Of a stretch of 64,000 nucleotides of DNA, positions 4,373 to 51,099 are shown in pieces. Origin of the DNA: Vermamoeba vermiformis. Its lineage: Eukaryota. The translations under genes and the position numbers were made by a program. A model generated the notes under the pieces. That model saw nothing but the letters and a program-made list of their open reading frames with translations, searched no databases and was not told the origin of the DNA. The DNA is taken from assembly GCA_045837725.1 (NCBI GenBank), contig JBEWZL010000011.1:372001-436000 (forward strand). Direction: 5' to 3'. The number at the start of each line of letters is the position of its first letter. Within the stretch, counting starts at the first letter, position 1.

Positions 4373-4708
4373 CACTGAAAAGGTGAAAAGAAGCGGTTCG
4401 AATTTCAGCCGAGATAAGGGTAATTTCCTTGACAAAAAACGCGGTCCTTCTTTTTCAATTCCAACGCAAGCGTTGCGCTGTTACAATTTGCCGTCATTAG
4501 TTTTTGCCTCCGTTTCAAGAATTATGAACAAAGATCCAGGATCAAATCCACAACATCCGTAAAGGTGGCATTACTTTGTAACGATTTTACGATGTATATG
4601 GACACCATATTAATATGAAGTATTAATGAGGTTTACTTAATCGCGTGAGGCTTGGAGGATCAAGCAAAAAAATTGCGTGTTTTTATTATTATTAGTTATT
4701 ATGAAAAT

Positions 4709-10473
<5,765 letters not shown>

Positions 10474-10948: not shown

Positions 10949-13900
10949 ATGGCCAGATACGGTTTAGTCAACCTTGAAAATGAATTATTATGCCCACTGC
11001 AATCTGTTAATGTATCATCCACTTTTGTAGACAGATTTGGTAAGCACTTTACATGCATCAAACGCCTCTTGTTCGTAACCTAATATTTTTCATTAGGATC
11101 CGCTGTAGTGACCCAAGTCTTCCAAAATAATAGTGATGATCCTATAGAAGCAGTATTTACGTTTCCAAAAGACGATCAAGCAGCAATAACAGGATTCAAA
11201 GTGAAAATAAATGACAAAACACTGATTGGTCAAATCGAAGCCAGCGATGAAGCACAAGAGAAATACAGTGATGCAATTGCGGAAGGCAAAGGTGCATATT
11301 TGCTCTCGCAAAAACGACCAGACATCATCTCTCTGTATATCGGTAAGTTTAACATCTTAAATTTTTTGATCGGATCTAACGAACAAATTTAAATTTGTTT
11401 AGGCAGCCTTTTACCGAACCAAAAAGTAACAATTGAGCTCAAGTACGTAATTGAAGCGCAATGGGAAGGAGATTCGTTAAGAATAACATTCCCAACGACC
11501 ATTGCACCTCGTTACACGCCTCAACAATTTCAACAAGACGAAGATCATAAATTAAATCCAGCTTATCATTCAAATGATAATACGCTGCCATATGACTTCA
11601 CATTCGAATCGTCAGTGCAATTAACGCTTGATACAATTTCATCGTTTGAATCTCCGACACACGAGTTCGATCTGACTTTATCGGGAGATCGAAAAGAGAT
11701 TAAAGTCGAAGCAAAGTTATATAACGGAGATAATTTGGCGAATAGAGACGTAGTTCTTATTGTCCATTCACATGAACGACAACAACGCAAAACACCAGTC
11801 ATGCTTGATGAAATTGACAAAAATGGGCATCACGCGCTGTACATCTCATTTATTCCAAAAATAGTAACGCAAGCTACAACACTGCCTCGAAGTCAATACG
11901 AGATTATCTTCTTAGTTGACAGGTAACACTTCGTTTGACACGTGTCATTCTGAAACTAATTCTTTTTTGATCAATAGAAGCGGAAGCATGTCCGGCGCAC
12001 CAATGGAAAACTGCAAGGCTGCGTTGTTACTCTTCTTACGGTCCTTGCCGAGCGACTCGTTCTTCAATATTGTCAGCTTCGGTACAAATCATGTCTCACT
12101 GTACAAAACACCTCAAGCTTACGACGATGCGTCGTTGGACTACGCTTCAAAGCAGGTGCAAAAATTTGGTGCCGATTTAGGTAAAGCAAATGAAATTTCG
12201 CTACATTTGATGCTGACGAACGATAGGTGGAACTGAACTATTTGCCCCGCTGAAACATATTTTAAGCGCTTCAAAACAAAAGAACAGAAAAAGAGTTGTG
12301 TTTGTCTTAACGGACGGCGAAGTTTCGAACTCTGGTCAAGTGATAGACCTGGTTCGTTCTCACGCCGCAACAACGTCAGTTTACACATTCGGCCTTGGAA
12401 ACAATGTCAGTAGGAACCTCGTTAATGGCATGGCCCAGGCTGGCAATGGTTACGCTGAATATGCCGCAAGCAACGAACGACTTCAACCTAAGATCATTCG
12501 ACAGGTAAAAATGTCATTTTATGACACTTTGACACTTTGACACGTGTCAACAGAATCTGCTCAAATCGTATGTTCTAACTTAGTTTTGCAGCTGAAAAGC
12601 GCCTTAAACTCATTTTCCGTGAAAGTTAATTGGAAATCAAAAGCCGTCAAAATGTTCCCGAACAACGTAATGCCAACAAACGAAGACGAGCCAGTTCACT
12701 TTATGGCCTTTATCGAAGATAACAATTACCTAAATAGGTAAGTGCAGCATTTAATAATCAATAACCTTTGAAAGTTTTTTAATAATTTTTTTAGCGTGAA
12801 GGAAATCGAACTGTTGTTGGAGGCTGACGGAAAGGCGTTTAAAACGGCAGTTCCGTTAAGTTCCGTAACGCAAATCCAAGGTGAAAAAATTCATCAGCTG
12901 TTCGTGAAGCACAAGGCTGATTCGTTAGAACGGGCTGCGCGACCAGAGAAGAAAAAGAAAATTCAAGAATTGTGCAAGAAGTATCGCGTGTTGTCGAATT
13001 TGACAAGTTTTTTGGTCGTAGAACGAAGAAATATTGCGACCGAAAAAACACCAAAACTAGTTGATGTGCCATTAGCCAAGCCTCAATTGAAAACTCAACC
13101 AACATCGCACCTCGGAAAAGCCAATTTTGTCGGCAACCATTCGTTCTGTGCATCTTATATCTCCACTATTGGCGTTGACTTCAAGATGACCAGCGTTAAT
13201 TTGGGCTCAGCTGGAACAGCTAAAGCACAAAACTGGGACACTGGTACGTATTTGACACTTGACATTTTGACACGTGTCATTCGGAGCTCGGATCGTCTCA
13301 TTGACACGCCAATTATTACAAATGATTATATACGAAAACATTAACGTAGAGGTTATTAATGTACTTTTTTATAGGTGGTCAAGAACGTTTCCGTTCGATG
13401 TCAACGAGTTATTACCGCGGAGCTAACGCCGTGCTACTCGTGTACAGTATTGACAGAAGCGACTCTTTCAAGCAAATTCAACACTTCTATAATGAAGCTC
13501 TTAACTCGTGTGGTCCCATCACCGTGTTCTTGCTTGTCGGAAACAAGTTGGATCTGCAAGCCCAGCGTCAAGTCTCATTCGACGAAGGCTTGGCTTGGGC
13601 TACACGTTACAACATTCCGTTCTTTGAAGTTAGTGCTAAAGACTTGTCGAATATGGCTGAAATGGTGCAAAGTCTTTACAATAACATGTACATGAAGCAA
13701 TGGGAAGACGGTGCAAGCTCAGTGAACTTTAAAAGTAAGTTCGGAAAAACTCGTTGAATTATTCCGTAGGTCTCTAACGGACTTTCCTTTTTAGGTGTTA
13801 CTGTCGGTGAGTCCGGCGTTGGCAAATCGGTCATTACTGAACGCATGTCTGGATTTTCGATCGATCTTAGCGACCTGGTCGAACGATATCCGCTTAGTAC

Positions 13901-14498
13901 CGGATCTTACAACACTAGTAATACTAATACTGGTTATACTCATACAAGCGCAAATTCGAATTCAAATTCTGGATCCAGCATGTTTGGCAAGCTTTGGAGT
14001 GGATTCACGGGACTTTTCAGTCGAAAAAGTGCCACTCAAACAGTCACAAGCTCAACGCCAGTAACTTCAGCGCCTATCAGAAACGATCAGATTAATAGTA
14101 ACTTTAACAACACTAATCAAAGTGCCGGGTCAACGCTTGGTCAAACAACCAGCAATAATAATAATTACAGCGCAAGTACGACTTCAAAGTTGTCGAGCAA
14201 GTCGATGGATGCAATGTTATTGTTACAAGAAGCCGCTGGCAATTGGAAATTGCATCAACATTTGGCCAAGTTGTTGAACATCGATTGGACTACACTCGAG
14301 TCGGCAAAGCCGAAAGAAATTACCGACGATGCGTGGATGACGTTGGTTTGCGTTGCTTATTTACACAATATTTGCAGCCAGCACAAGTCAGAATGGGAAC
14401 TGATCGTTCAGAAGGCTGAAAATTGGTTGAAAACTGTTGGTGCAAACAGATCTGAATGGAATCAACGTGCAAGACAGTTGATACAACAAAGTGTTTGA
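10949..14498 (+). CDS. VIT + vWA (vWA5A-like) protein with an inserted circularly permuted Rab-like GTPase domain, paralog 1
   Basis: VIT: PLQSVNVSS...VTQVFQNNSDDPIEAVFTFP. vWA MIDAS: D/RSGSM, VLTDGEV. GTPase motifs in order: STIGVDF, WDTG/GQE, NKLD, EVSAK, then FK/SVTVGESGVGKS. vWA5A-like tail: LLQEAAGNW...WELIVQKAENWL. Confidence 0.9.
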
Positions 14499-14584
14499 AA
14501 GTAAACGTGTGGTGTGTTGATTTTCCCAAATAAGGCAATTTTATCGACCACTTCGCCACGTGACATTTTTCTCGGTCGTTGATC

Positions 14585-14667
14585 GCATCGGTGCCCGAGT
14601 TGGTCTAAGGGGTTGGATTAAGGCTCCAATATCTTCGGATGCAAGGGTTCGAATCCCTTCCGATGCA
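14585..14667 (+). tRNA. tRNA-Leu (anticodon AAG)
   Basis: Acceptor stem GCATCGG/CCGATGC-A, anticodon arm TTGGA-TTAAGGC-TCCAA, long variable arm, T-loop GTTCGAATCC, downstream TTTTT Pol III terminator. Confidence 0.95.
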
Positions 14668-15024
14668 ATACCTTTTTGCCTCTTTACGTCTGACTACTTC
14701 TACCTTCCTTTACCGGTCTTTATGCGTCTCCAATCTGTCAAAGTAATTTTTTGTGACGAGAAATCTTTCGGCGTTTTTTCTCGGTTCGCTAAAGTAAAAA
14801 TTGGCACTGCCGTCGTTTATTCACCTCTGAAACCAACAACGTGACAACATGAACCTTATTTAATTAATTATTATTAATATCTGTGCATCACTCGCATTTA
14901 CACCTGACAAGGCATAATAACGTAAGTAAATTTTTTAAAATTAATTAATTAATTTATTCTGCTCGTTTTCGAATATTCTACTGTCTTTGGCTCAGTAAAT
15001 AATAATAATTTTTATTTCAAGACA

Positions 15025-15678
15025 ATGTCAAAAATCGACAATAAAGCAGAATATTATTTTGGAAACAAGCCAGTCATCGAGAAAGGCGCTGATGAGAATG
15101 AATTCGAAGGATCATTCACAGAGTCCGTAGATTTAGAAAAATTGGCGTTAATTCGCGAACAAAACCTGGCTAACTTCTGGGAGCAAATCTGGATCGAGCT
15201 CGCGATGCTCCGTTGCGGAATTGAAGTCAATGATAACTCAGATATTATTACATTGACCGAAGTGTCTCCTATTGCTCGCCAGAGGTACCCTTACGGCGGC
15301 CAACAGCAGATTTGGTCCGAGAACGTAACTGGCGCCAGAAAAAGGGGTTGGGACTGGAGCGGCGATACTGAAATTTATGCTAAGACCTTAAACGGTCCTA
15401 AGAACTTATTTGAAGCAGTAATTTCGTTGATGATCTCCGAATACTCTGGATTCTGGATTTACAGCGACCTTATGACGATCGAACCAGGCGAGCACTCTGC
15501 ATATCAAGATTGGCAAAGCTTTTGGAACGACTCCTGCCACTCATATGAAAATGATTTGCCGGCATGGAAAGGCAGGCCTGAGCGAGATGTGGTCCTGAAA
15601 CAGGATGGCAACACTGGCATTCACTTGGCACAAAAATCAGGTGGAACTTATGTCATTGTATATTTCCTTACTTCTTAG
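15025..15678 (+). CDS. Hypothetical 217-aa acidic, Trp-rich protein with an intronless CDS
   Basis: Uninterrupted ATG-to-TAG ORF flanked by AT-rich sequence; no family recognised. Confidence 0.7.
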   Translation: MSKIDNKAEYYFGNKPVIEKGADENEFEGSFTESVDLEKLALIREQNLANFWEQIWIELAMLRCGIEVNDNSDIITLTEVSPIARQRYPYGGQQQIWSENVTGARKRGWDWSGDTEIYAKTLNGPKNLFEAVISLMISEYSGFWIYSDLMTIEPGEHSAYQDWQSFWNDSCHSYENDLPAWKGRPERDVVLKQDGNTGIHLAQKSGGTYVIVYFLTS

Positions 15679-15822
15679 TTGATAATTTCAAATTGTAAAT
15701 AAACTTCATCGCTTCTAGTTGAACTTTATCAAACGATCGGATCCTATGGTAAAGCGGCGCAACGTCAATTAAGAGCTAAGTATATTTATGAGTCCAATAG
15801 TAAATGCAACTATATTAAGAGC

Positions 15823-16994
15823 TTATTTGCGCAACAGAAGGGACAAAAAGTCGCTGGCGAAAGCGTTGGTGCAGGTCAACTTTGGATTCACCTTGTTGGG
15901 AGGAGCCTGAATAACAGCAACGTTAGTATTTCAATATAAATACTTAAGTGTATATTTTCTTACGTAGATGGAAGGAGAGAAGGGACCAGAAACGGTGTTG
16001 AAGAAGTTGAGTTGGAGATCTCCCAAGTACTCAATACCCTCAACGTCAATTTGGACAATAGTGGTGGTCTTAGTAGAGACCCAAATAGTGACAGGGGCAG
16101 TGTAGCCGAAGACAGCAGCTATTTACAAGAGTTAATAAGATGCTTTTTTTTTGACAGATCAAAACTCGTGTCAGATGGCCAGATCCGTGTCGTTTTCTTA
16201 CCTTCGAACTCCCAGCCAGTGCAAGGTTTACCAGCGACGACCTTGTTGCCGACGAATGAAGCATTGGAAGGCAATTGGAAGGGGAAGAAGATCAAAAGGG
16301 AGGCGGGAACAGAGCCTAAAAGGTACGTGTTCACATTAGTTCACGAACGGCAAAAACTTACGAATGGTAGGTTCACTGGAACTTTCCAAAATATCACAAA
16401 TCGATCATATACTAATGCCTTAAAGCTTAATATGACTTACCAAAGTTCCAGCACAAAGGACCTTCGTACATGTAACCTTGAAACGAGCAAGATTAATTAA
16501 AGATTTGGCAAGTTTCTCAAATTGGATTATGTCTCATACCAGTAGTAGTGCCTTGGCTAGCATCAGGGGAAGCAACGAGGTTGGTGTGGAAAGACAATGG
16601 AACATCTAAATGTCAAGAATGTCAGTCTTCAGCTCGATCGGATTTCGATCTGCACTTACACTCTTCACCACCGACTTCCAAGAAAGAACCAGCGTTGACG
16701 TAATCCAAAGCAAAGAATCCCGAGACAAAGACGGGAGAATCAGTTGGGGAAACGTAGCCAGGCAAAACAACTGTCAAAATCGTGAAATTAATTTCTGGAT
16801 CTGAATCATCGCTTATAATCTAGCCATGCATTAAACTGCACGTTGAACAATTTAAGGACAAATTTATTATTATTATTATTTTTAAACTTACGCGTGAAGT
16901 TGGTGTAGAACTGTTGAGGAAGCTTTGGCGGAGTTTGGCAGAAGGCAGTGCCAACGACGCAGAGAATAGCAGCGATAACGATAATCGATCTCAT
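15823..16994 (-). CDS. Secreted ependymin-related (EPDR/LolA-like) protein, copy A
   Basis: Signal peptide MRSIIVIAAILCVVGTAFC, then PPKLPQQFYTNF, FVGNKVVAGKPCTGWE, VTIWVS and FSPSIYAPP..C. Multi-exon, about 220 aa. Family call is from motif pattern only. Confidence 0.6.
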
Positions 16995-17682
16995 GTTTTA
17001 AGATTTGTGGCGCAGTGCTTATCAATAAACAAATAAAATCAAGAATAAAATCTGTTTTTGTGCTTGCCAAACTCTTCGCAGGAACTTTCTTTATGCACCT
17101 TGTCAGTCCACAAAAGCACTTTTGCGTATTAATTTTACGACCCTTATGCAAGACGAACTACGATTCAAAATATCTCGCCACTAGCCATTAATGTCAAGAT
17201 TATCGGTCTTTCCTCCGAAAATTATGATAATCTTATTATTATTATAATGTAATTATGGTATATATTTATGTAATAAAAAATTATTGCACCCATCAGTAAA
17301 GCGAGGTAGAACCGGAAGATCCAGCACCGAGTTTTCTTTGGCGCCAAGTATGATCACCATCAGCTAAGACGAAGGCTGGATTGACAATATACGTATGCTT
17401 GTGAAGCAAACATGTTCATACGGGATGCCCTTACAGAAGTCTATTCCAATTCAACTGCATCCGGATGATTTAAACCACAGCTTATGGCTTGCTTCGCTCA
17501 AATACTTGAAGCTATTAAAACGACGTACTGCTTAAGAAGCACCGCTTTATGACACATTTGTTACTTCTGGCTTCAGATCGACTGCTGGCCACCGAAATTT
17601 CAAATACACGTCACTTCTGGTCTATTCTATTGCCTTAAATAATCGCGATTTGTTTCTACTACTGCTAATTTGAACATAAACG

Positions 17683-20600
17683 ATGGCACAACAAGGGTTT
17701 ATCGACATTAAGACTGGACAGTTATGTCCTTTAGTTTCTCTTCAAATCCGATCCGCCTTCATCGATCGTTTTGGTAATATTCTTGATAATATACAGCTGT
17801 ATAAATAACTTAGTAATTTTTTTTCCTTAGGTTCTATTGAGGTTGTCCAAGAATACGAAAACACAGGCAAAAATCCGATAGAAGCAGTATTCACGTTTCC
17901 AAAAGACGATCAAGCAGCAGTAACAGGATTCAAAGTGAAAATAAATGACAAAACGCTGATTGGTCAAATTGAAGCCAGCGATGAAGCACAAGAGAAATAC
18001 AGGTGATGCAATTGCTGAAGGCAAAGGTGCATATTTGCTCTCTCAAAAGCGATCAGATATCGTAACTCTTTATATTGGTAAGTTTTATCGTGGTAAATTA
18101 CGCAAATCTTGTCATCTTTTGGATGCTGTGCTACATCTGGTCCCGAAAATATTTTCTAAATCTTACACCAACTTTAAAACAAATTAACGTAGCTTAAATT
18201 GGGTATAACAATTTATTCATGATTTTTCTCCACATTTATTCGTCTCATCTAACAAAAATCGGATTCGGATCTGACTTAACTTTTATTTAGGCAGCCTTTT
18301 ACCGCAACAAAAGGTTCAAGTCGAAATAACCTGCGTTACAGAAGCTCAATGGGAAGGCAAAGCACTTAGAATAACATTCCCAACGACCATTGCACCCCGT
18401 TACACGCCTCAACAATTTCAACAAGACGAAGATCACCAGATCAACCCCGTTTATCATTCAAATGATAACCAATTGCCATATGACTTCATATTCGAATCTT
18501 CAGTGCAATTAACGCATGATACAATTTCATCATTTGAATCTCCTACGCATAAATTTTCGGAGATCGACATCTCAGCGGATCGAACCAAAGTCAGCGCGAA
18601 AGTGCAGGCAAAGAAAGGAGATATCATAGCTGATAGAGATATCGTTCTTATAGTTCATGCCGATAAGAGATCGTTGCAAAAAATGCCGATTATGATTAAC
18701 GAAGTAGATGCAGCCGGACACCACGCACTTTATCTCTCGTTCATTCCAAAAATAATTTGTAACAAAATTTCGAAGAAAAAAATGCACGAAATTATATTTG
18801 TTATCGACAGGTAAGAAATTCAACGGTAATTTTAATTTCAAAAATTTTAGATCCAAATTTAAATTTTAATAGGAGCGGAAGTATGGACGGTCAGCAAATG
18901 AATTGTGCGAAAGAAGCTTTGCAACTATTTCTTCGTTCATTGCCCGCGTGTTTCTTCGACATTGTCAGCTTTGGATCGAACTTTCAACAAATGTTCGGAT
19001 CTCCTGCGCAATATTCTAACGAGTCTTTGGCGCAAGCTACTGAACAAGTGAAGAAATTTCAAGCTGATTTGGGTATGCTACAAAATTTGAATTTTAAATA
19101 TAATTTACTAAACGTGAGAATAAGGTGGTACGGAGCTTTTGCGGCCTTTAAGCCAGATCTACCAACAATCACCAAAAGGTGGCAAAAGAATCATATTCGT
19201 ATTAACAGGTACGACATATTAAATCACTCATATTAGTATTAAATTAATTCTTTTCTTTAGATGGTCAGATCTCGAACACGCGTCAAGTGGTGGATCTCGT
19301 CAAAAAGAATTCGGCCACAACTTCAGTATTCACGCTGGGAATAGGCGATTCTGTTAGTAGAGACCTAGTTAATGGCATGGCTCAGGCTGGCAATGGATAC
19401 GCTGAATATGCAACGGGCAACGAGCGACTTCAACCTAAGATCATTCGACAGGTAAAATGTCATTTTATGACACTTTGACACTTTGACACGTGTCAAGTTG
19501 AAGTTTCTTAGGTCACGTTTTACAACCTTAGTACTACATTTAAATCGATGATAGATTATTTTGAATGCTAGAAATGACTAACCTATGAAATGACAGTTGA
19601 GGCGTGCCCTTGAAAACTTCTCCGTTGAGATTGATTGGCATTCACGAACGGTAGAACAATTCCCAGAACATATTTCTCCGATCTCTGACGAAGATCCGTT
19701 GCACGTGATGGCATTTGTTGACGACTCGTACCTTCGAAGGTAAAATTTAATCCCTTCTAAATGAGTTCCAGGTATTAATTCTTTTTTATTCTTAAAGCAA
19801 CAAGAAGATTATGATTAAAATCAGTTGCGATGATAATAATGAATATTCGATCCCGTTTGATCTAGCTCAAATGAAGACAGTCCGCGGCAACAGAATTCAC
19901 CAATTATTTGCTAAGAAAAAGGCTGATACAATGAGTTCCGATGCAACCAACAATAAGAATCAAATTCGCAATCTGCAAATATTGTGCAAAAAATACACCG
20001 TGCTGTCAAACGTCACAAGTTTCGTACTAGTCGAACAACGAAAAATTGCTACAACGACCACGCCAGAGCTCGTAAATATTCCGCTTGCCAGACCTAAGCC
20101 TGCGCCGTTGACAGCTCAAACAATAGTGACCAATGGCACCGTGTCACTTGGCGGAAAATTCTCAATGAATTACAAAGCGACAATTGGCGCAGATTTTGCT
20201 ACGTGCAGAATAGTATTGGCTGATAGAGAAGTGAGGGTGCAACTATGGGATCCATGTAAGTATCATTCGTTCATGAACCAAATTTTCACTGAACTGACTT
20301 CGAAATTTTTTCACAGCCGGATCTGAACGATTTGGTGGACCGTCGAGAATATTTTATAGTGGTACATCTGCAGCTGTTATTATGTACGATGTGCATTCTC
20401 GACCTTCATTTGACAACGTGAAAGATTGGATTGACAAATTGACCGTGCAAGCTGGATCCGACATTCCGATGGTTTTAGCGGGCAATAAGATTGATAAAGA
20501 TGGTCAAAAAGTTTCAACGGGAGAAGGCCAAAAATTAGCAGATTCATTGGGCATTGCTTTCTTCGAAATTTCCGTGAAAGATACCACGAACATGGGTGAC

Positions 20601-21335
20601 TTGGTGAAACTGCTCTTCGCTACTATGATATTGAACGACCCTAATAATACTGTGCTTAAAGGTAGGCCGACACCTATAATAATAGTTAATAGATCTAAAG
20701 GGGTTTTAGTTATTATTCTCGGAGATTCAGCCGTCGGAAAAACCAGTTTCAACACGAGACTTGCCGGATCCACCATCAACTTGAGCGACATCGACACGCG
20801 AAACTTAATAGGCTCTCAAAGTACTACTCAAGATACTCAAGCCCAGGATAATAATGGCTCGTTACTTGGAAAAGTATGGCAAGGCTTCAAAAGCGTGGTT
20901 GGTTATTTCAGCGGATCCAGATCTACAAATGACGCGTCAATTGCGACTACGAATACGAATAATACAAGCAATAATACAAACACCGTGCTTGTGCAAAAGC
21001 CACAAAAAGTCATGGTGCAGTTGCCGCCCAAGCAAAAAAAAGTCGATTTGAATGCTATTATTTTGGCGCAAAACGCTGAAGGCGCTTGGAACATCAACGC
21101 AGCCGAATCAGTTCAGCTTTTTGGATCGGATCTGACAACTCAAGCACCGCAAGGAGTCAAACAAGATATTTGGACGACGATAGTTTGCATCGCTTATTTG
21201 ACGGTCAAATGTAGCCAGCACAAGTCAGAATGGGAATTGATCGTTCAGAAGGCTGAAAATTGGTTGAAAACTGTTGGTGCAAACAAATCTGAATGGAATC
21301 AACGTGCAAGACAGTTGATACAACAAACTGTTTGA
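17683..21335 (+). CDS. VIT + vWA protein with circularly permuted Rab-like GTPase, paralog 2; apparent +1 frameshift near 18002
   Basis: Same architecture as 10949-14498: ATIGADF, WDPS/GSE, NKID, EISVK, LK/VIILGDSAVGKT. AAATACAGGTGA versus paralog AAATACAGTGA puts TGA in frame (real lesion or sequencing indel). Confidence 0.85.
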
Positions 21336-21421
21336 AAGTAAACGTGCAGTACGTTGATTTTCCCAAATAAGGCAATTTTATCGACCACTTCGCCACGTGA
21401 CATTTTTCTCGGTCGTTGATC

Positions 21422-21504
21422 GCATCGGTGCCCGAGTTGGTCTAAGGGGTTGGATTAAGGCTCCAATATCTTCGGATGCAAGGGTTCGAATCCCTTCCGA
21501 TGCA
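21422..21504 (+). tRNA. tRNA-Leu (anticodon AAG), identical to 14585-14667
   Basis: Identical cloverleaf sequence followed by TTTTT. Confidence 0.95.
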
Positions 21505-22002
21505 ATACCTTTTTGCGTACTAGATCGAAGGTACGTGGCCTATTAATGTTACGTAAATCCAGCGAATCAAACCAAGAAAACTGATTTTAAAATATTACTC
21601 ATGCATAAAATAATATTTAATATTTCTTGTTGGTTGAAGCAAAACGCGATAGAAAAACGTTAGCCTTAGTTTTTTTTTAAAATTGCTGCAAAATTATTGG
21701 CTGCCTATTTTTAAAATGGACCAATGAGATTTTACCGGCCCTATATAGATATGCCCCTAGCGACCGCTAAAAGATTCAATAACTGATACTAAGCCGAGTT
21801 CAACGAGTTTGAGACGTCGATCGATTCCCTTACTCCCTTTCCATTTTTGGAGTGAACCCTGTTACTCTATTGGTCCGCATTATTTTAAGAGCGGCCAATT
21901 ATATCATTAGGCACCTCCCGATTGGCCAAGAAAAAAATCGATTTAACCTTAAAACGTTTTTGGATCTTGTTCATTGATAAGCACTGAAGACAATCTTAAA
22001 AC

Positions 22003-23193
22003 ATGAGATCGCTCATTGTTATCGCAGCTATTCTCTGCGTCGTTGGCACCGTCTTCTGCCAAACCCCGCCAAAGCTTCCTCAACAGTTCTACACCAACTT
22101 CACGCGTAAGTTTAAAAATATACTAATAAAATTGTTAAAATTAATAATAGAGAAATTATCTGTCGCAGGTTATCCTTAATTATGCGTCCGCAATAATTTG
22201 CGTTGCTTAACGATCGGAGAGGATTAAGATCGAGAGTATTAATTTTAATGAATTTTGTGCCAGTTCGTTTTCCTAGCTATTCTTCACCGACTGATTCTCC
22301 CGTCTATATCGCGGGATTCTTTGCTTTGGATTATGTTAACGGTGGCGCTTTCTTGGACGTCGGTGGCGAGGATTGTAAGTGCGGATCTGATGCGGATCGC
22401 GCTGCAGACTAACGCTCTCGCCTATTTAGATATTCCTTTGTCTTTCCACACCAATCTCGTTGCTTCTCCTGATGCCAGCCAAGGCACCACCACTGGTACG
22501 AGCCATAATTTAACTTACGAAACTTAATTAATCCTTTTCGTTTCAAAGGTTACATGTACGAAGGTCCTTTGTGCTGGAATTTTGGTAAGTCATATAAAAC
22601 CATATTGTACGATCGTTTGTGATTAATTGAAATTCTGCCAATGTTAGTAATTTTGCGATTAATGAACTAATGCGAACACGTACCTTTTAGGCTCTGTCCC
22701 TGTCTCCATCTCGAGTTTCTTCCCCTTTGAATTGCCTTCCAATGCTTCATTCGTCGGCAACAAGGTCGTCGGGGGTCAGCCTTGCAGTGGCTGGGAATTG
22801 GAAGGTAAGAAAATGACGCGGATCTGCCCGTGTGACACGAGTTTTGAAATCGTCAAAAAAAAGCATCCAATCATCTTATTAATTCTTGTAAAAGCTGCTG
22901 CTATCTTCGGCTACGTTACTCCCATCACCGTTTGGATCTCTACTAAGACCTCTAATATTGTCCAAATTGACGTTGAGGGTATCGATTACGTGGGCGAACT
23001 CCAAATCAATTTCTCCAACACCGTTTCTGGTCCCTTCTCTCCTTCCATCTACGTAAGATAATATTCTCCTACATTTTTATATTGAAGTACTAACGCTGCT
23101 GTTATTTAGGCTCCTCCCAACAAGGTGAATCCACAGTTGACCTGCACCAACGCTTTTGTCAGCGACTTTTTGTCTCTTCTGTTGCGCAGATAA
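22003..23193 (+). CDS. Secreted ependymin-related protein, copy B
   Basis: Paralog of copy A with the same exon structure: MRSLIVIAAILCVVGTVFC...PCSGWE...CTNAFVSDFLSLLLRR*. Confidence 0.6.
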
Positions 23194-23309
23194 GCTCTTA
23201 AAATAGTTACGTGTACAATTAGACCATAAATATACTGAGGCTAACTCTTGATTTCGTGGCGGTAACGTTTGACGCCCGATACGCTATATTTTTTGACGTG
23301 ATTTACTTT

Positions 23310-23451: not shown

Positions 23452-23774
23452 TTGATTCGATCTCCTTTTAAAATTAATGCGAAGGAGATTCAAGAGATGA
23501 AAGTGTATCTTGCGTTAATTGCGTTGATGACAGAATATGAAGGGAGCACAATTTGAAAGACCAGCAGGGGATCGGTACAATATAATTTATAGTCTTGGCT
23601 CCTTTTCAATTGTATTCCATAACAATTTTTCTATTAATTTTTTAGAAGGACTTCGCATAAAGGGCGTTAATTAATACGAAGGAAAGTTCCTGAGAAGAGT
23701 ATGGCTACAACCACAAAAATCTGATTTTATTCTGATTTTATTGTTTATTAATACGCTGAACCACAAGCTTAAAC

Positions 23775-24939
23775 ATGAGATCGATTATCGTTATCGCTGC
23801 TATTCTCTGCGTCGTTGGCACTGCCCTCTGCCAAACCCCGCCAACGCTTCCTCAACAGTTCTACACCAACTACACGCGTAAGCTAAGCAATAATAATCAT
23901 AACAAATTGTGTTCAATATGGCCACGCGCAATACGCTTTCTAAACAATGAGACATTGTTTCCAGATCGAGTATTAATTTTTACGAATTTTGTACCAGTTG
24001 TTTTGCCTAGCTACGTTTCACCGACTACTGCTCCCGTCTATATCTCGGGCTTCTTTGCTTTGGATTACATCAACGCTGGCTCTTTCTTAGAAGTTGGTGG
24101 TGAAGAGTGTAAGTTGCAGAATCTGATCTAAATCTGATCGAGCTGCCGACTAACGTTCTCGCCATTTTAGATATTCCGTTGTCGTTCCACACTACTTTCG
24201 TTGCTTCTCCGGATGCTAGCCAAGGCACCATCACTGGTACGAACCTAACCTAACTAATGAAACTTTAATTAATCCTTACTGGTTTCAAGGTTACATGTAC
24301 GAAGGTCCTTTGTGCTGGAACTGGGGTAGGTTATATTAAACCATCGTATACGATTAATTTGTGATACATTGGAAATTACGGCGAACCAGCCCAATGCCAT
24401 TAATTTAGCGGTTTTTGCGGTTCATGAACTAATGCGAACACGTACCTTTTAGGCTCTGTTCCTGCCTCCCTTTTGACATTTTTCCCCTTCCAATTGCCTG
24501 TTAATTCTTCATTCGTCGGCAGCAAGGTCGTCGCAGGTCAACCTTGCACTGGATGGGCGTTCGAAGGTAAGAAAGTGACGCAGATCTGACAGTCCGACGC
24601 GAATGTTGAAATGTAGAAAAGCCCTAATAATTCTTGTAAATAGCTGCTGTCTTCGGATACACTGCCCCTGTCACCATTTGGGTCTCTACTAAGACCACTA
24701 ATATCGTCCAAATTGACGTCAAGGCTGTTGAATACTTGGGAGAACTCCAACTCAACTTCTTCAACACCGTTTCTGGTCCCTTCTCTCCTTCCATCTACGT
24801 AAGATAATAATCGCCTACATTTTTATATCGAAATACTAACGTTACTGTTGTTAAGGCTCCTCCCAACAAGGTGAATCCACAGTTGACCTGCACCACCAAC
24901 TTCTTCGGCGGCTTTTTGTCCCTTCTTTTGCGCAAATAA
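23775..24939 (+). CDS. Secreted ependymin-related protein, copy C
   Basis: Paralog of copies A and B with the same introns; ends CTTNFFGGFLSLLLRK*. Confidence 0.6.
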
Positions 24940-25135
24940 GCTCTGAATATAGTTGCAATTACTGGTAGACTCATAAATATACTTAGCTCTTAATTCGACG
25001 TTTTACTGGTTAACTAGATCCGATCGTTACGACTTGAAACATCGCTAAATGTTCGCTAAATAATAATATCTACATTATTTCATATATAATTGCTCTCGGC
25101 ATATTATTTAGTATTATTACAATTATAAGTTTGCG

Positions 25136-40657: not shown

Positions 40658-42350
40658 ATGTCAACAAAGGATGGGGTAAAAAATTTTGATCAGATTATCG
40701 TTCACGAGCATTGTTTTGCAACTAATTAATTAAATCACCTAAAAATATGATTAACATCATCAGATATTAATAAATTTTTAGGCGCAAATTGTAGCTGATG
40801 GGAAGGAGCTCAAAGTTGAAGAGCTGTACAAATCCAAGTTGCACTTTGCCGAGTGGAGAAAATGGACACTTGCATTGGCAAATGAAAAAGGGCATATGTT
40901 ATCGATAGAAAAGGCATTATACATATTAGAGACGTATCCTAACTCTGCAACGGCGATCCGTTTTTATGGTGATTTTAATTGGCAGTTGCATCCAACGCAG
41001 CTCAAAAGACTCAAAAAAATAATAATTAATTCGAAGAAAATTGAAAAAGTGTGGTTTGATGCGCCAATAACAGCGATGCAGACGGTTCGCAAAGCACTCG
41101 AGAAAAACACCAGCGTAACAACTCTTAGTTTCTCATTCACGTTTCCGACAATAGAGCCGTTAAACTTCACTAAAGAAATTACGAAAATGATTAAAAATAA
41201 TCCGAGAATCAAACGGATCACAGCAGCGTACGAGCAAAAGTCAGAAAAATTCTTGACCACAATAATGGCAGCAGCGAGCTGTAATCCATCTATAGATTCA
41301 TTTGGCATTTCTGAGAAGACTAGTCTATTTGAAGGCATTTATTTAGGAAATAGATTGGATCTGATCCGAGATTCGTTGGCGAAAAATCCGAATATTACCG
41401 AATTCATTCTTGGAAAGTGCTATGTATTTGAAGAGACATTACTTGGAGAAATTACGGATATTATTAAGCAAAACAAGCTCAAAATATTTGGTTTTAATGG
41501 CACGCTTCGAACACATTATCCAAACGTTGTGGATCTGACCAAGTTTATTTCAACGATTCGACTATCGTCATTAACAACTCTGAACCTAGTATGTGATCAT
41601 TTCCAAGCTGATTTTATTGCAGATATCATTTCTATTCCTAATATCAAGACTTTATCGATGAACATGGTTGGAGAAGCGAATCTAGTCGCAAAAGCATTAG
41701 CGAAAAATACAACGTTAGAAACGCTTAATTTGGCATGTAAAGACGTCCATTGGGTAGACCGCGAATCTAATCGCGAATTTTTTGGAGCTTGGAACCAACA
41801 TCCGACGTTAAAGTCGTTTTCTCTTACAAGAACGATTTTGGATGTGGATCTTGAAACAATTTCAAATTTGCTCGGTGGAAAGCATTCATTAACTAGTTTA
41901 GATTTACCACAATTAGAAATAGGATCCCATTTCGAAAAACGAAAGCATGCTGCGCTTATCTGCGAGAAACTACGATCGAACCAAAAAATCAAAAAACTTC
42001 GGATCTCCCTGGAAGGCGACAAAAAACATCAAAATGCATTATTTCAAGTCGTATCACAACATAGCTCATTGACTTCATTCGATATTGGGTTTAGCAAAGA
42101 TTTATTAAGAAAAACAGTTATCGATCTAGATTCGAAAAACTTATTCCGACTACCAAACAATGAAATCGGTGACATTTTGGCATTATTGGTAAGAAATAGA
42201 GAATACAGAATGAATATTATACTCGCTATCAAAATTATTCAAAAATCATTTTGGACCTCGTTGCCAGCGGAACTGTGGGTTAAAATAATTGATTATTTGA
42301 CGTACGGACTCTCAATCGATTATCCGAAGCTATTAAATATCGAGAAATAA
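40658..42350 (+). CDS. RNI-like leucine-rich-repeat protein with C-terminal F-box-like motif
   Basis: Exon 1 MSTKDG, intron 40676-40781, then one long exon with ALEKNTSVTTLSF, ALAKNTTLETLNL and HSSLTSFDI repeats; ends FWTSLPAELWVKIIDYL. Confidence 0.8.
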
Positions 42351-48406: not shown

Positions 48407-49131
48407 CTACAGTAAATCCATTACAACGATCAAACGACTAGTCGTCAGTCAGATGTACTTGAATATGCTACAAAAGTCTGAAAGTGAGCTAAATTATTAA
48501 TATAAAAACCAGCAGGATTTAAATTAATGATATATTTACATCCAGAAAGAGTTGCGTGGCTAATGAAGTTCAGATTTATCCAATCCACGAGATATATCCA
48601 AGGCTCAAGTAAACGAAGGTAGGTTTTTTATTGCCTATTTATCTCTGGTAAAGATTGCAAATACCGTAAAAATCTTAATTTTATAAATATACGTAAAACT
48701 GAAACGGAATTGTCGTAGCCGAATTACAATGGTGTTAATTCTGAAATTTCCTGCGTTTTTTGATCGGTCCAGAAGCTTCTGAGAGTGTGCACTATGACAG
48801 CTTCAAAAATTCTTATGAACTTTCGCAAGTTTTTATAGTTAGTACCTCATTAATAGGATATGAAGAGCTCACTCCACTGCTCTTTGGCATCGGATCGGAT
48901 CCAAAATAACATCTTATTGCAAAAGTTTATCAGAGGTCAAATGGTTTATGCATAAAACCGAGGTAAGGCATATTGTACACAACGCAAAACAATCGACCTT
49001 GCAATTTTCAAGTAATTTTTTTCAACGGAAGTTTCAGTCCACAAATGCAACTAAAAAAAGAAGTTTCGTTTTTTAAACTAAATCTAAAGTTGCAATTTTA
49101 TTTCAATTCTAACGTACGACAATCAAATAGG

Positions 49132-51099
49132 ATGCTCAATATGCCTTCGATAAAATACTTGCTCTCAGCCATCGCTATCTTTTTCGTTGTCGGATCCACG
49201 TTGCTTTTGGCCCTTCCGAAGACACCAGAACAACGACCAATAAAGCCAGCATCCGATGTTGCATTGCCTTCGTCAACACCACAGCCATATTGGACCCCTC
49301 AATCTTATTCGCCGGATGCATCGTCTCCAGACTCGCAGTCACCTGATTCATCTCCATCTTGGGGACCACAGCCTTATTGGACTCCTGATCCCAATGCACC
49401 TTCTGATTCACCCGATTCAAGTGCTCCTGACGCGTACTCGCCCGACTCTGGTTCTCAGCCTTCGTCATGGTCTCCTGATGGCTCATCGTCCCCTGGTTAT
49501 GCTCCCGACACGTACTCGCCCGACTCTGGTTCTCAGCCTTTATCGTGGAGTCCAGGTGGTTCATCGTCTCCTTCTTACACGCCCGATTCATCCGCTCCTG
49601 ACGCTTCGAGTCCTTCCACGTGGAATCCGTATTGGGGACCACAGCCATATGACACACCTGACTCTGGTTCTCAGCCATCATCGTGGTCTCCCGACGGTTC
49701 ATCTTCGCCTGGTTACGCCCCTGATTCATCCGCTCCTGACTCTTCAAGTCCTTCCACGTGGAATCCGTATTGGGGACCACAACCCTATGACACGCCTGAC
49801 TCTGGTTCTCAACCTACATCCGCCCCTGACTCTGGTTCTCAGCCTTCATCGTGGTCTCCTGACGGCTCATCGTCTCCTTCGTTCTCGCCCGATGCGTCTC
49901 CTGACTCTGGTTCTCCGTCATCAATTTGGTCTCCTGACGGCTCGTCCCCATCTTACGCACCTGATGCATCTGCTCCTGACTCTTCGAATCCTTCCACGTG
50001 GAATCCGTATTGGGGACCACAACCGTATGACACACCTGACTCTGGTTCTCAGCCTTCATCGTGGAGTCCTGACGGTTCATCGTCTCCTTCTTACTCGCCC
50101 GATTCAAGTGCTCCCAACACTTACTCGCCTGACTCTGGTTCTCAGCCTTCATCATGGTCTCCTGACGGCTCATCGTCTCCTTCTTACTCGCCCGATTCAA
50201 GCGCTCCAGATTCGTCTCCTACGTGGAGTCCGTCTTGGGGACCTCAACCTTACTGGACTCCTGATTCAAATTCTCCGTCATATTCACCTGATTCATCTCC
50301 CGATGCGTCAAGTCCTACGTGGAGTCCGTCTTGGGGACCTCAACCATCTTGGAGCCCAGATCCAAACACACCCGATTCATCTCCCGATGCTTCGAGCCCT
50401 ACTTGGAGTCCGTCCTGGGGACCACAGCCTTACTGGACTCCTGATTCAAACGCACCTTCTTATTCGCCCGATTCTTCCGCTCCGCAGTTCTATTACACGC
50501 CTGATGGTTCTCAACCCTCATCGTGGACTCCAGACGGTTCGTCGTCTCCTTCGTTCTCGCCTTCGTACAGTCCTAAGACCCACGTGGCTATTCAGTATTT
50601 TGGATACGGATCTCACTGCACGAGAAGCAATGCTGAAGTTGTAACAGTCAATCGCACCGAATATTGTACGCCTGCTTGTGAGTACTATGGCGGTCAATGG
50701 GTAATCGTGGTCAAACGTGGGTCGAACAGATTAGCTATGGCAATAGCGACTATTACTGTTCTACGTAAGTACGAAAAATTTCTGAGAATTTCTTGCTTGA
50801 ATTAATTTTCAGCCTCAAGACTTAATTAATATGCTTATAAATACGGCGTATAATGTATTAATACTTAATTTAGTCCTCAGTATGCTATCTACACGAAGTC
50901 AGGCCAATGTACTGGATCTTTCGACTTTGGTCTCAGAAAATGCTCAGCGGATACGGTCTATTTTTACTCGTGTACAAGTGCTTATTGCAATCAATGCCAA
51001 CTGAACCAAAAATTAGCAACTAATTCTTGTTACGTTGGCAGTATGTACCAATGCGTCTCTGACGTTAACGGCGATGCTCGTATTAATCCGTTAATGTGA
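49132..51099 (+). CDS. Ser/Pro/Asp-rich repetitive secreted or anchored protein with the family Cys-rich C-terminal module; frameshifting deletion near 50703
   Basis: N-terminal hydrophobic segment LLSAIAIFFVVGSTLLLAL, about 430 aa of repeats, then HVAIQYFGYGSHC...CTPAC. Continues in a shifted frame (RGQTWVEQISY...C), then last exon PQYAIYTK...INPLM*. Confidence 0.75.
49270..50570 (+). repeat. Intragenic coding tandem repeats
   Basis: Recurrent units PDSGSQPSSWSPDGSSSP, STWNPYWGPQPYDT (x3) and PTWSPSWGPQP (x3). Confidence 0.9.

Follow-up and report, generated by a model that had tools for sequence, protein, structure and literature searches.

A Rab-derived GTPase domain with the motif order G2-G3-G4-G5-G1 in a VIT-vWA protein of Vermamoeba vermiformis and in other Amoebozoa

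INTRODUCTION

Two natural permutations of the GTPase fold are set out by Elias and Novotny (2008; PMC2430557), a paper that also refers to an earlier claim that only one is possible. The five G motifs follow the order G4-G5-G1-G2-G3 in the YRG family (i.e. YlqF/YawG) and the order G3-G4-G5-G1-G2 in cpRAS. A second set of described proteins that bears on the present locus consists of VWA5A (BCSC-1), Vwa1 and PARP4 (PMC10539598; PMC12280208). For Dictyostelium Vwa1, a long loop is proposed to allow docking of the C-terminal domain (CTD) on the vWA domain, which is thereby inhibited, and the word 'GTPase' occurs 0 times in the main text of the paper that makes this proposal (PMC10539598). The present analysis concerns a gene, termed gene A, in a stretch of 64,000 nt from Vermamoeba vermiformis (contig JBEWZL010000011.1 of assembly GCA_045837725.1, positions 372,001 to 436,000; hereafter the window), which is intron-rich, eukaryotic DNA with a base composition of ~39% GC. 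Gene A carries a Rab-derived G domain in the order G2-G3-G4-G5-G1, a third natural permutation of the GTPase fold that is real, expressed, conserved and apparently undescribed.

RESULTS

Motif order and domain map of gene A

All five G motifs are intact in gene A, the Gln after G3 is present, and the motifs lie in the order and at the positions reported in a first-pass annotation of the window (Table 1). That annotation had also seen no P-loop upstream of G2, as was confirmed by a six-frame pattern scan. Five P-loop patterns were found in the 127,996 codon positions of the window, and only two were on the forward strand (i.e. at 13806 in gene A and at 20721 in a neighbouring gene, termed gene B), so no P-loop lies upstream of G2 in gene A. 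Chance expectation for the pattern is ~0.007 per 60-codon, three-frame stretch. In profile searches, from which two partial and out-of-order Ras-family matches had been expected, the Pfam Ras profile was split between exon 7 (profile positions 14-55, E 0.005) and exon 8 (57-160, E 5e-30). The last exon, which holds the P-loop, had no Pfam match on its own, and a purpose-built, script-generated Rab profile matched switch I, the core and the P-loop segment in that order. Weak Pfam RsgA matches were also obtained.

The proposed VIT-vWA host was confirmed and is a VIT-vWA-CTD protein of the VWA5A/Vwa1 type. No Pfam match was found for the CTD, and its one match in the PDB (E 0.84) was unrelated. 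Canonical Rabs carry C-terminal prenylation cysteines. The gene A protein terminates in the CTD without a terminal Cys, and an amphipathic aromatic segment in its low-complexity linker is a possible membrane contact, judged by hydrophobic moment; a similar segment was the best window in four of seven other proteins scanned, in a scan without a control.

Table 1. Positions of features of genes A and B in the window
Feature	Position	Strand	Basis
Gene A, 9 exons, encoding a VIT-vWA-(permuted Rab)-CTD protein of 998 aa	10949..14498	+	exon joining, Pfam, spliced joints for 7/8 introns
Gene A, exons 1-5	10949-11039, 11097-11342, 11403-11922, 11978-12180, 12227-12504	+	
Gene A, exons 6-9	12592-12737, 12795-13243, 13375-13734, 13795-14498	+	
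VIT domain, exons 1-3	10949..11455	+	Pfam VIT E 5e-23 on exon 2
vWA domain	11900..12603	+	Pfam VWA_3 E 2e-12 and 2e-10
MIDAS-type (metal ion-dependent adhesion site) DxSxS motif of vWA (DRSGS), interrupted by intron 3	11918-11987	+	
Last host strand before the insertion, putative VITpt2 (name from PMC10539598)	13003..13026	+	alignment with relatives
Short family-typical segment preceding switch I and forming the new N-terminal entry to the G domain	13117..13134	+	member alignment
Switch I/G2, Rab1-like, Thr at 13165-13167	13144..13185	+	PDB matches
Strands 2 and 3, start of G3	13186..13243	+	Pfam Ras, motif map
G3 (WDTGGQ), interrupted by intron 7	13234-13382	+	
Intron 7, 131 bases, phase 1, within G3	13244..13374	+	skip in runs X1, X2, X7, X21
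Exon 8: remainder of G3 including the catalytic Gln, then switch II, G4, G5, helix 5, linker of 9 aa and first part of strand 1	13375..13734	+	Pfam Ras 57-160
G4	13539-13553	+	
G5	13626-13640	+	
Strand 1, interrupted by intron 8	13725-13805	+	
Intron 8, 60 bases, phase 1, within strand 1	13735..13794	+	skip in X1, X2, X7
Remainder of strand 1, P-loop, helix 1 (to ~13850), following family motif	13795..13874	+	motif map, orthologue identity
P-loop/G1 (GESGVGKS)	13806-13829	+	
Amphipathic aromatic segment within low-complexity linker	13977..14021	+	hydrophobic moment 0.70
C-terminal helical domain (CTD), VWA5A/Vwa1 type	14193..14495	+	BLAST to relatives P0151, P0203, P0184
Gene B, tandem paralogue of gene A, same motif order	17683..21335	+	motif map, alignment
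Gene B, G2	20180	+	
Gene B, G3	20246-20321	+	
Gene B, G4	20484	+	
Gene B, G5 (SVK)	20571	+	
Gene B, G1	20721-20744	+	

Splicing and expression of gene A

All eight introns of gene A are GT-AG, and the joined reading frame is free of internal stops. Splicing was assessed from public contigs and reads of 4 of 23 listed runs (X1, X2, X7 and X21). Both X7 (RNA-seq) and X21 are recorded as RNA, X1 and X2 are RNA by guess, and the X21 reads derive mostly from a relative. The 131-base skip of intron 7 was observed in X1, X2 and X7 and in three reads of X21. The 60-base skip of intron 8 was observed in X1, X2 and X7 (shifted by 3 bases in X7) and was not seen in X21. Both introns that had been predicted within the G domain are thus spliced, with their joints present in public RNA or probable-RNA contigs and with the P-loop exon joined in frame to exon 8 in X1, X2 and X7. 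Spliced joints were seen for seven of the eight introns, intron 1 being outside the coverage, and the depth of X1 and X2 drops in intron bins (e.g. X1 at intron 7, 2.8 versus 50-70 around it). Retention of intron 8 leads to a stop at aa 772 and use of an alternative, nearer AG at 13769 to a stop at aa 767. Comparison of RNA and genome gave 187 differences; among the 40 listed, 31 were synonymous and 9 replacing, a ratio that speaks for selection, and the single listed difference within the P-loop was silent.

Comparison with described permutations and host proteins

The gene A domain resembles cpRAS in that both are permuted Ras-superfamily domains with helix 5 joined to strand 1, placed in a large amoebal vWA protein. 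The break of cpRAS, however, is between strands 2 and 3, whereas that of gene A is between helix 1 and switch I, with G2 preceding G3 and none after G1; P0227 and P0242 exhibited the published cpRAS order in the same motif scan. The cpRAS domain is of the Ras family with a TIE G2 motif and is N-terminal, followed by a zinc finger and a Sec23/24-trunk vWA. The gene A domain, in contrast, is of Rab type with a switch I that matches Rab1, and is internal to a VIT-vWA-CTD protein, with VIT and VWA_3 upstream. As a separate observation, P0227 (ENA) is a CPRas-type protein with seemingly two cpRAS domains in tandem.

Likeness to the YRG family consists of a helix 5 that runs into strand 1 and a P-loop in its usual place, as seen in a model of the relative P0175 (see below). 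YRG proteins differ in motif order and are ribosome assembly factors, whereas the gene A domain is a Rab by sequence. The proposal that the chain is opened between helix 1 and switch I, as a third permutation distinct from both YlqF/YawG and cpRAS, was upheld by the order tests, the splicing and the model.

With Vwa1/VWA5A, gene A shares a VIT domain, a vWA domain with MIDAS, a helical bundle, a putative VITpt2, a long loop and a CTD, the likeness of the CTD being judged by BLAST to relatives and from the helical P0183 model. The difference is the permuted Rab inside the loop before the CTD. The family profile matched human PARP4 at 620-1184 (E 2e-64); PARP4 has a PARP catalytic domain that gene A lacks. 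As to whether the CTD equals MINT, the vault-binding domain, a weak collinear match of the CTD to PARP4 1521-1605 was obtained (6.4 bits), and the CTD alone gave no match. All five G motifs are shared with Rab1 and Rab7, with switch I nearest Rab1 in gene A and Rab7 in gene B, but canonical Rabs differ in that the P-loop of gene A is last, prenylation cysteines are absent from its C-terminus and the domain is embedded in a 998-aa protein. Gene A also differs from the tandem Rab EhRabX3, as it is not a tandem of two whole domains. No description of the G2-G3-G4-G5-G1 order was found in targeted searches of the open-access literature; in their accessible text, PMC13393502 and PMC8296547 merely cite cpRAS, and 'GTPase' occurs 0 times in that of bioRxiv 10.64898/2026.05.01.722283.

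Predicted fold of relatives

Structure models were made of the one-piece relatives P0175 and P0183. The P0175 model has a predicted local distance difference test score (pLDDT) of 81-98 over most of residues 251-420, with one block at 71, and its domain core ends in a strand (386-393), the P-loop and a helix (399-406). Overlay with Rabs covered residues 247-384 (Z 15-16, root-mean-square deviation (rmsd) 1.5-2.9); on Rabs, sequential aligners stop at about residue 384 of the model and cannot place strand 1. Overlay with YlqF, YqeH, YjeQ and RsgA covered residues 275-415 (Z 10.4-11.4, 14-25% identity), with 110 residues aligned in 288-412 for RsgA 6h4d (Z 10.4, rmsd 2.4) and 130 residues in 275-412 for YlqF 1puj (Z 10.4, rmsd 3.2). 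Because the YlqF overlay takes up 130 of a 138-residue span, at least 19 of the last 27 residues are matched, indicating that strand 1 and helix 1 occupy their canonical place. The full-length P0183 model exhibited the same G domain elements and an ITIH-like host (Z ~23 against ITIH1 6fpy and ITIH4). The complete G domain anticipated by the first-pass annotation was therefore obtained in a model of a relative, P0175, and not of gene A.

Family members and their hosts

A phmmer search against 1.84 billion representatives (the best 150 of 17,755 matches) and a profile search of long proteins (83 matches among 5,475 candidates) yielded for the most part plain or tandem Rabs. When the 274 fetched proteins were scanned for motifs, 12 rows had switch I before G3 and the P-loop after G5, with nothing Rab-like (i.e. 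neither switch I nor G3) following the P-loop. These rows correspond to eight one-piece genes, four of them transcriptome-derived. Six of the eight are assigned to five amoebozoan species from three NCBI phyla, namely Pelomyxa schiedti (KAH3745480.1 with a VIT-vWA-CTD host and KAH3765890.1 with a PARP4-like host), Trichosphaerium sp. ATCC 40318 (P0175), Mastigella eilhardi (P0185 and isoforms), Arcella intermedia (P0186, P0268) and Rhizamoeba saxonica (P0190); P0183 and P0191 are the two further one-piece genes. The G2 Thr, the G3 Asp and Gly and the P-loop Lys were kept in 12/12 domains, and in most members helix 1 is followed by a short motif, S-x-D-L or similar. This spread across Amoebozoa, the neighbouring paralogue and the subfamily-specific switch faces had been overlooked in the first-pass annotation.

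Three host types were distinguished. The first is VIT-vWA, with or without PARP. The second is a CPRas-type protein with a Sec23 trunk (P0186, P0190 and P0191, matching P0242 by BLAST at E 1e-57 to 4e-69), which has the layout of cpRAS proteins and a zinc finger in two of the three cases; assignment of these three proteins to cpRAS itself was dropped, as they carry the G2-G3-G4-G5-G1 order. The third is the Mastigella protein, in which, besides Ras, Pfam finds only a synaptobrevin-like stretch.

A word search of long proteins with the gene B exon gave 24 matches and no permuted relatives, the matches being tandem Rab arrays, Rab44/EFCAB4B types and one other, and a similar search with exon 7 of gene A found none among 613 candidates. 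The ESM Atlas at 0.80 returned ordinary Ras/Rab clusters only. Alignments A1, A2, A6, A7 and A8 were left out of searches and folds (fragments were misplaced in A1, A2 and A8).

Two further proteins from EukProt were recorded. P0203 of Pharyngomonas kirbyi has a Rab7-like domain of ordinary order fused ahead of VIT-vWA-CTD, and is the same Rab/VIT-vWA pairing without permutation. P0053 of Bolivina argentea is a 243-aa Rab7-like protein with the order G3-G4-G5-G1-G2, and may be a fragment.

Gene B and orthologues of both genes

The switch I of gene B is Rab7-like, and the Gln of G3 is replaced in gene B and also absent from its orthologue. A metagenome scan yielded four loci: L001 is the orthologue of gene B, L002 and L003 together are the orthologue of gene A with the start of gene B downstream, and L004 was dropped as a family member, being an ordinary Rab-like match. 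The orthologues share the motif order of genes A and B. Intron places in the permuted domain of gene B are presumably those of gene A. A reading of its G3-to-G1 stretch as one exon was dropped, as L001 points to a probable 48-base, in-frame intron at 20662-20709. As assembled, gene B carries a +1 frameshift near 18003 (18001-18006; one base extra versus gene A, with a stop at 18004), a position at which L001 is in frame; the frameshift is either an assembly error or a recent loss.

Identity between orthologues over strand 1, P-loop and helix 1 was 0.74 (A) and 0.61 (B), and over the linker behind helix 1 was 0.34 (A) and 0.45 (B), which likewise speaks for selection. At the nucleotide level, the G domains of the paralogues were 0.46 identical versus 0.65-0.66 for orthologues. 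Over the last 50 CTD codons, in contrast, the paralogues were 0.89 and 0.99 identical and the orthologues 0.82 and 0.81; as the paralogues are more alike there than the orthologues, this is a sign of gene conversion at the CTD end. A 347-base repeat, 94% identical, was recorded at 14334-14679 and 21171-21516, comprising the CTD end of either gene together with the tRNA-Leu(AAG) gene that follows it (14585-14667 and 21422-21504), and the same homogenising is seen in the related species.

Phylogeny and switch faces

For the switch I exon of gene A, the top 22 of 96 PDB matches were Rab1, and for that of gene B, which had 167 PDB matches, 12 of the best 13 were named Rab7, whilst the G3-helix 5 exons of both genes exhibited no subfamily specificity in their PDB matches. 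Three relatives were 89-95% identical to Rab5-like rows over G3-switch II, as compared to 40-45% elsewhere.

Trees were built with 48 of 122 candidate reference rows, picked to cover subfamilies and leaving out P0151 and isoforms. In whole-domain trees, one group held first 8/9 and then 11/12 of the permuted domains (94/97; 84/98), and the permuted domain was placed among Rabs with cpRAS outside (98/88). The 114 non-switch columns placed 12/12 domains in one group (Shimodaira-Hasegawa-like approximate likelihood ratio test, 77). With the 48 switch columns, the 12 domains needed five changes and fell with Rab1/8-, Rab5- and Rab7-like rows (82-85). A tree holding all permuted domains together was not rejected (p 0.64 and 0.44); constraining them with cpRAS gave a tree 13.9 log units worse, with a p-value of 0.15 in the approximately unbiased (AU) test. 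The scaffolds group together, if weakly, and the switch faces resemble Rab1 (A), Rab7 (B) or Rab5.

Other features of the window

A 12-base palindrome, TGACACGTGTCA, has nine copies in the window (3126, 5745, 11936, 12538, 13268, 19484, 48045, 58894 and 58934) versus 0.00 expected from 100 shuffles. Four of these copies are inside introns of genes A and B, and one further copy is in an intron of L001. Between genes A and B, a 241-codon open frame (14953-15678) has no Pfam match, and in L001 its end can be made out by eye ahead of the gene B orthologue, on the upstream side. An intron-bearing gene occurs in three copies that are 80-82% identical (15732-17092, 21967-23239 and 23679-25028), the two later copies being inverted versus the first, with no Pfam match on the one frame tested. 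A 522-codon open frame (40782-42350) gave weak leucine-rich repeat and weak C-terminal PRANC matches (E 0.05), under or near noise. A 612-codon frame (48967-50805) contains Ser/Pro/Asp/Trp/Tyr-rich repeats and resembles a cell-surface or cyst-wall protein. The reverse strand at ~4700-10150 carries a multi-exon ABC transporter gene, ABCC-like by eye, with P-loops at 5842 and 8103.

DISCUSSION

As G1-G5 and the Gln of G3 are intact, it is very likely that the gene A domain binds GTP/GDP with Mg. The chain would fold into a Rab-derived G domain opened between helix 1 and switch I, with helix 5 and strand 1 joined by a linker of ~9 residues. This permuted Rab occupies the long loop that joins the VIT-vWA body to the CTD and would display a switch surface of Rab1 type (gene A) or Rab7 type (gene B), which could be read by the cell's own Rab partners (i.e. 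effectors, exchange factors and GTPase-activating proteins) on a trafficking compartment. The amphipathic linker segment may hold the membrane in place of prenylation, and partner binding would shift the host between docked and open CTD-vWA states. The scaffold may have had a single origin in Amoebozoa, probably via a trimmed tandem Rab duplication (tandem Rab arrays being common among the search matches), after which the switch block could have been adapted to various Rab subfamilies, with the module passing from one host to another. The best reading of the sequences is that the regulatory loop of the host displays a nucleotide-gated Rab-mimic surface, a reading that is adopted tentatively, at slightly less than an even chance.

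Several observations weigh against this reading. The best matches of exon 8 of gene A are Rab14 and Rab2 and not Rab1, the Rab1 face of gene A may be close to a general Rab consensus, and the gene A orthologue keeps 9/14 switch I residues. Tree supports for the common scaffold and the switch faces are weak and unstarred, and the subfamily labels of the reference rows are our own assignments from motifs. P0183 joins Rab7 in the whole-domain tree (98/95), and AU tests did not reject separate origins of A with Rab1 (p 0.084), of B and P0183 with Rab7 (p 0.24) or of the three relatives with Rab5 (p 0.29). The modelled folds are those of P0175 and P0183 rather than that of gene A, switch I has a pLDDT of <50 in both models, and the full-length P0183 model has a predicted template modelling score of 0.35, such that no domain contact or arrangement is shown by it. 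Autoinhibition of Vwa1 is itself a proposal from structure prediction (PMC10539598).

An alternative explanation is that of an integrated decoy, in which a Rab-like face baits bacterial effectors aimed at Rab1, Rab5 and Rab7, and binding or modification of this bait trips a shared output (i.e. the CTD, the vWA domain or, in one relative, a PARP domain). The three faces found are indeed those of Rab1, Rab7 and Rab5, PDB titles show Rab1 and Rab5 bound by bacterial proteins, and a PARP domain accompanies the permuted module in P0071, linking the two. Absence of the G3 Gln from gene B and its orthologue fits a decoy, as do paralogues whose G domains stay different although, within a species, their CTD ends have been homogenised. 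Replacing changes, however, are not in excess in switch I between orthologues (synonymous versus replacing, 6:5 for A and 6:3 for B, over 14 codons each), the window contains two copies only, and the homogenised tract extends into the duplicated tRNA gene, a possible driver of conversion in its own right. We regard a decoy as unlikely. In its broadest form, which is also rather improbable, an old amoebozoan permuted-Rab family would be a built-in bait or sensor that reports tampering with Rab traffic, with one scaffold plugged into VIT-vWA, PARP4-like and CPRas-like proteins and a switch face exchanged or remodelled time and again in imitation of Rab1, Rab5 or Rab7. Amoebae would then have an integrated-decoy immune system based on a new GTPase topology.

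A lever mechanism, in which switch I is anchored to the VIT-vWA body through the new N-terminus, so that the change between GTP and GDP pulls directly on the host, had been suggested in the first-pass annotation as a direct mechanical tether. The break does free switch I from helix 1 and join it to host sequence, and the short segment preceding switch I is conserved. The gap from VITpt2 to the G2 Thr is 48, 49, 50 and 40 aa in four of six proteins, but 142 and 335 aa in two Pelomyxa proteins, and the link is low-confidence in both models (P0175 and P0183) and predicted to be disordered. In P0186, P0190 and P0191, the G domain is N-terminal and only helix 1 leads into the vWA part; as the vWA module follows helix 1, switch I is not tied to vWA in these three relatives. 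As a rule for the family, a direct lever through switch I is unsupported, and we consider the lever quite improbable.

Equally improbable is a constitutive scaffold or slow enzyme, for which permutation would be a tolerated by-product of insertion, nucleotide would serve stability and the surface would be fixed and non-switching. The detached switch I, disordered in the models, and the B-type copies, which lack the G3 Gln and have SVK as G5, are consistent with such a scaffold. Conservation of the G2 Thr, G3 Asp/Gly and P-loop Lys in all 12 domains argues against it, as do the short branches of the switch block toward the Rab consensus.

An artefact (i.e. a misjoined gene model, or a pair of broken Rab pieces not forming a single domain) is largely refuted and hardly credible, since, although the P-loop exon alone has no Pfam match, tandem Rab arrays mimic the local motif order and fill the searches, and gene B is frameshifted as assembled, both joints are present in public contigs, one-piece relatives exist, the P-loop has no switch I or G3 behind it, unlike in tandem arrays, and the model closes the fold.

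A nucleotide-gated Rab-mimic surface would provide a candidate input for the poorly understood VWA5A/Vwa1 proteins, and the Rab1, Rab5 and Rab7 faces open direct tests of partner binding. With switch I cut from helix 1 and this arrangement kept in five species and three host types, the family is a natural test of switching without that link.

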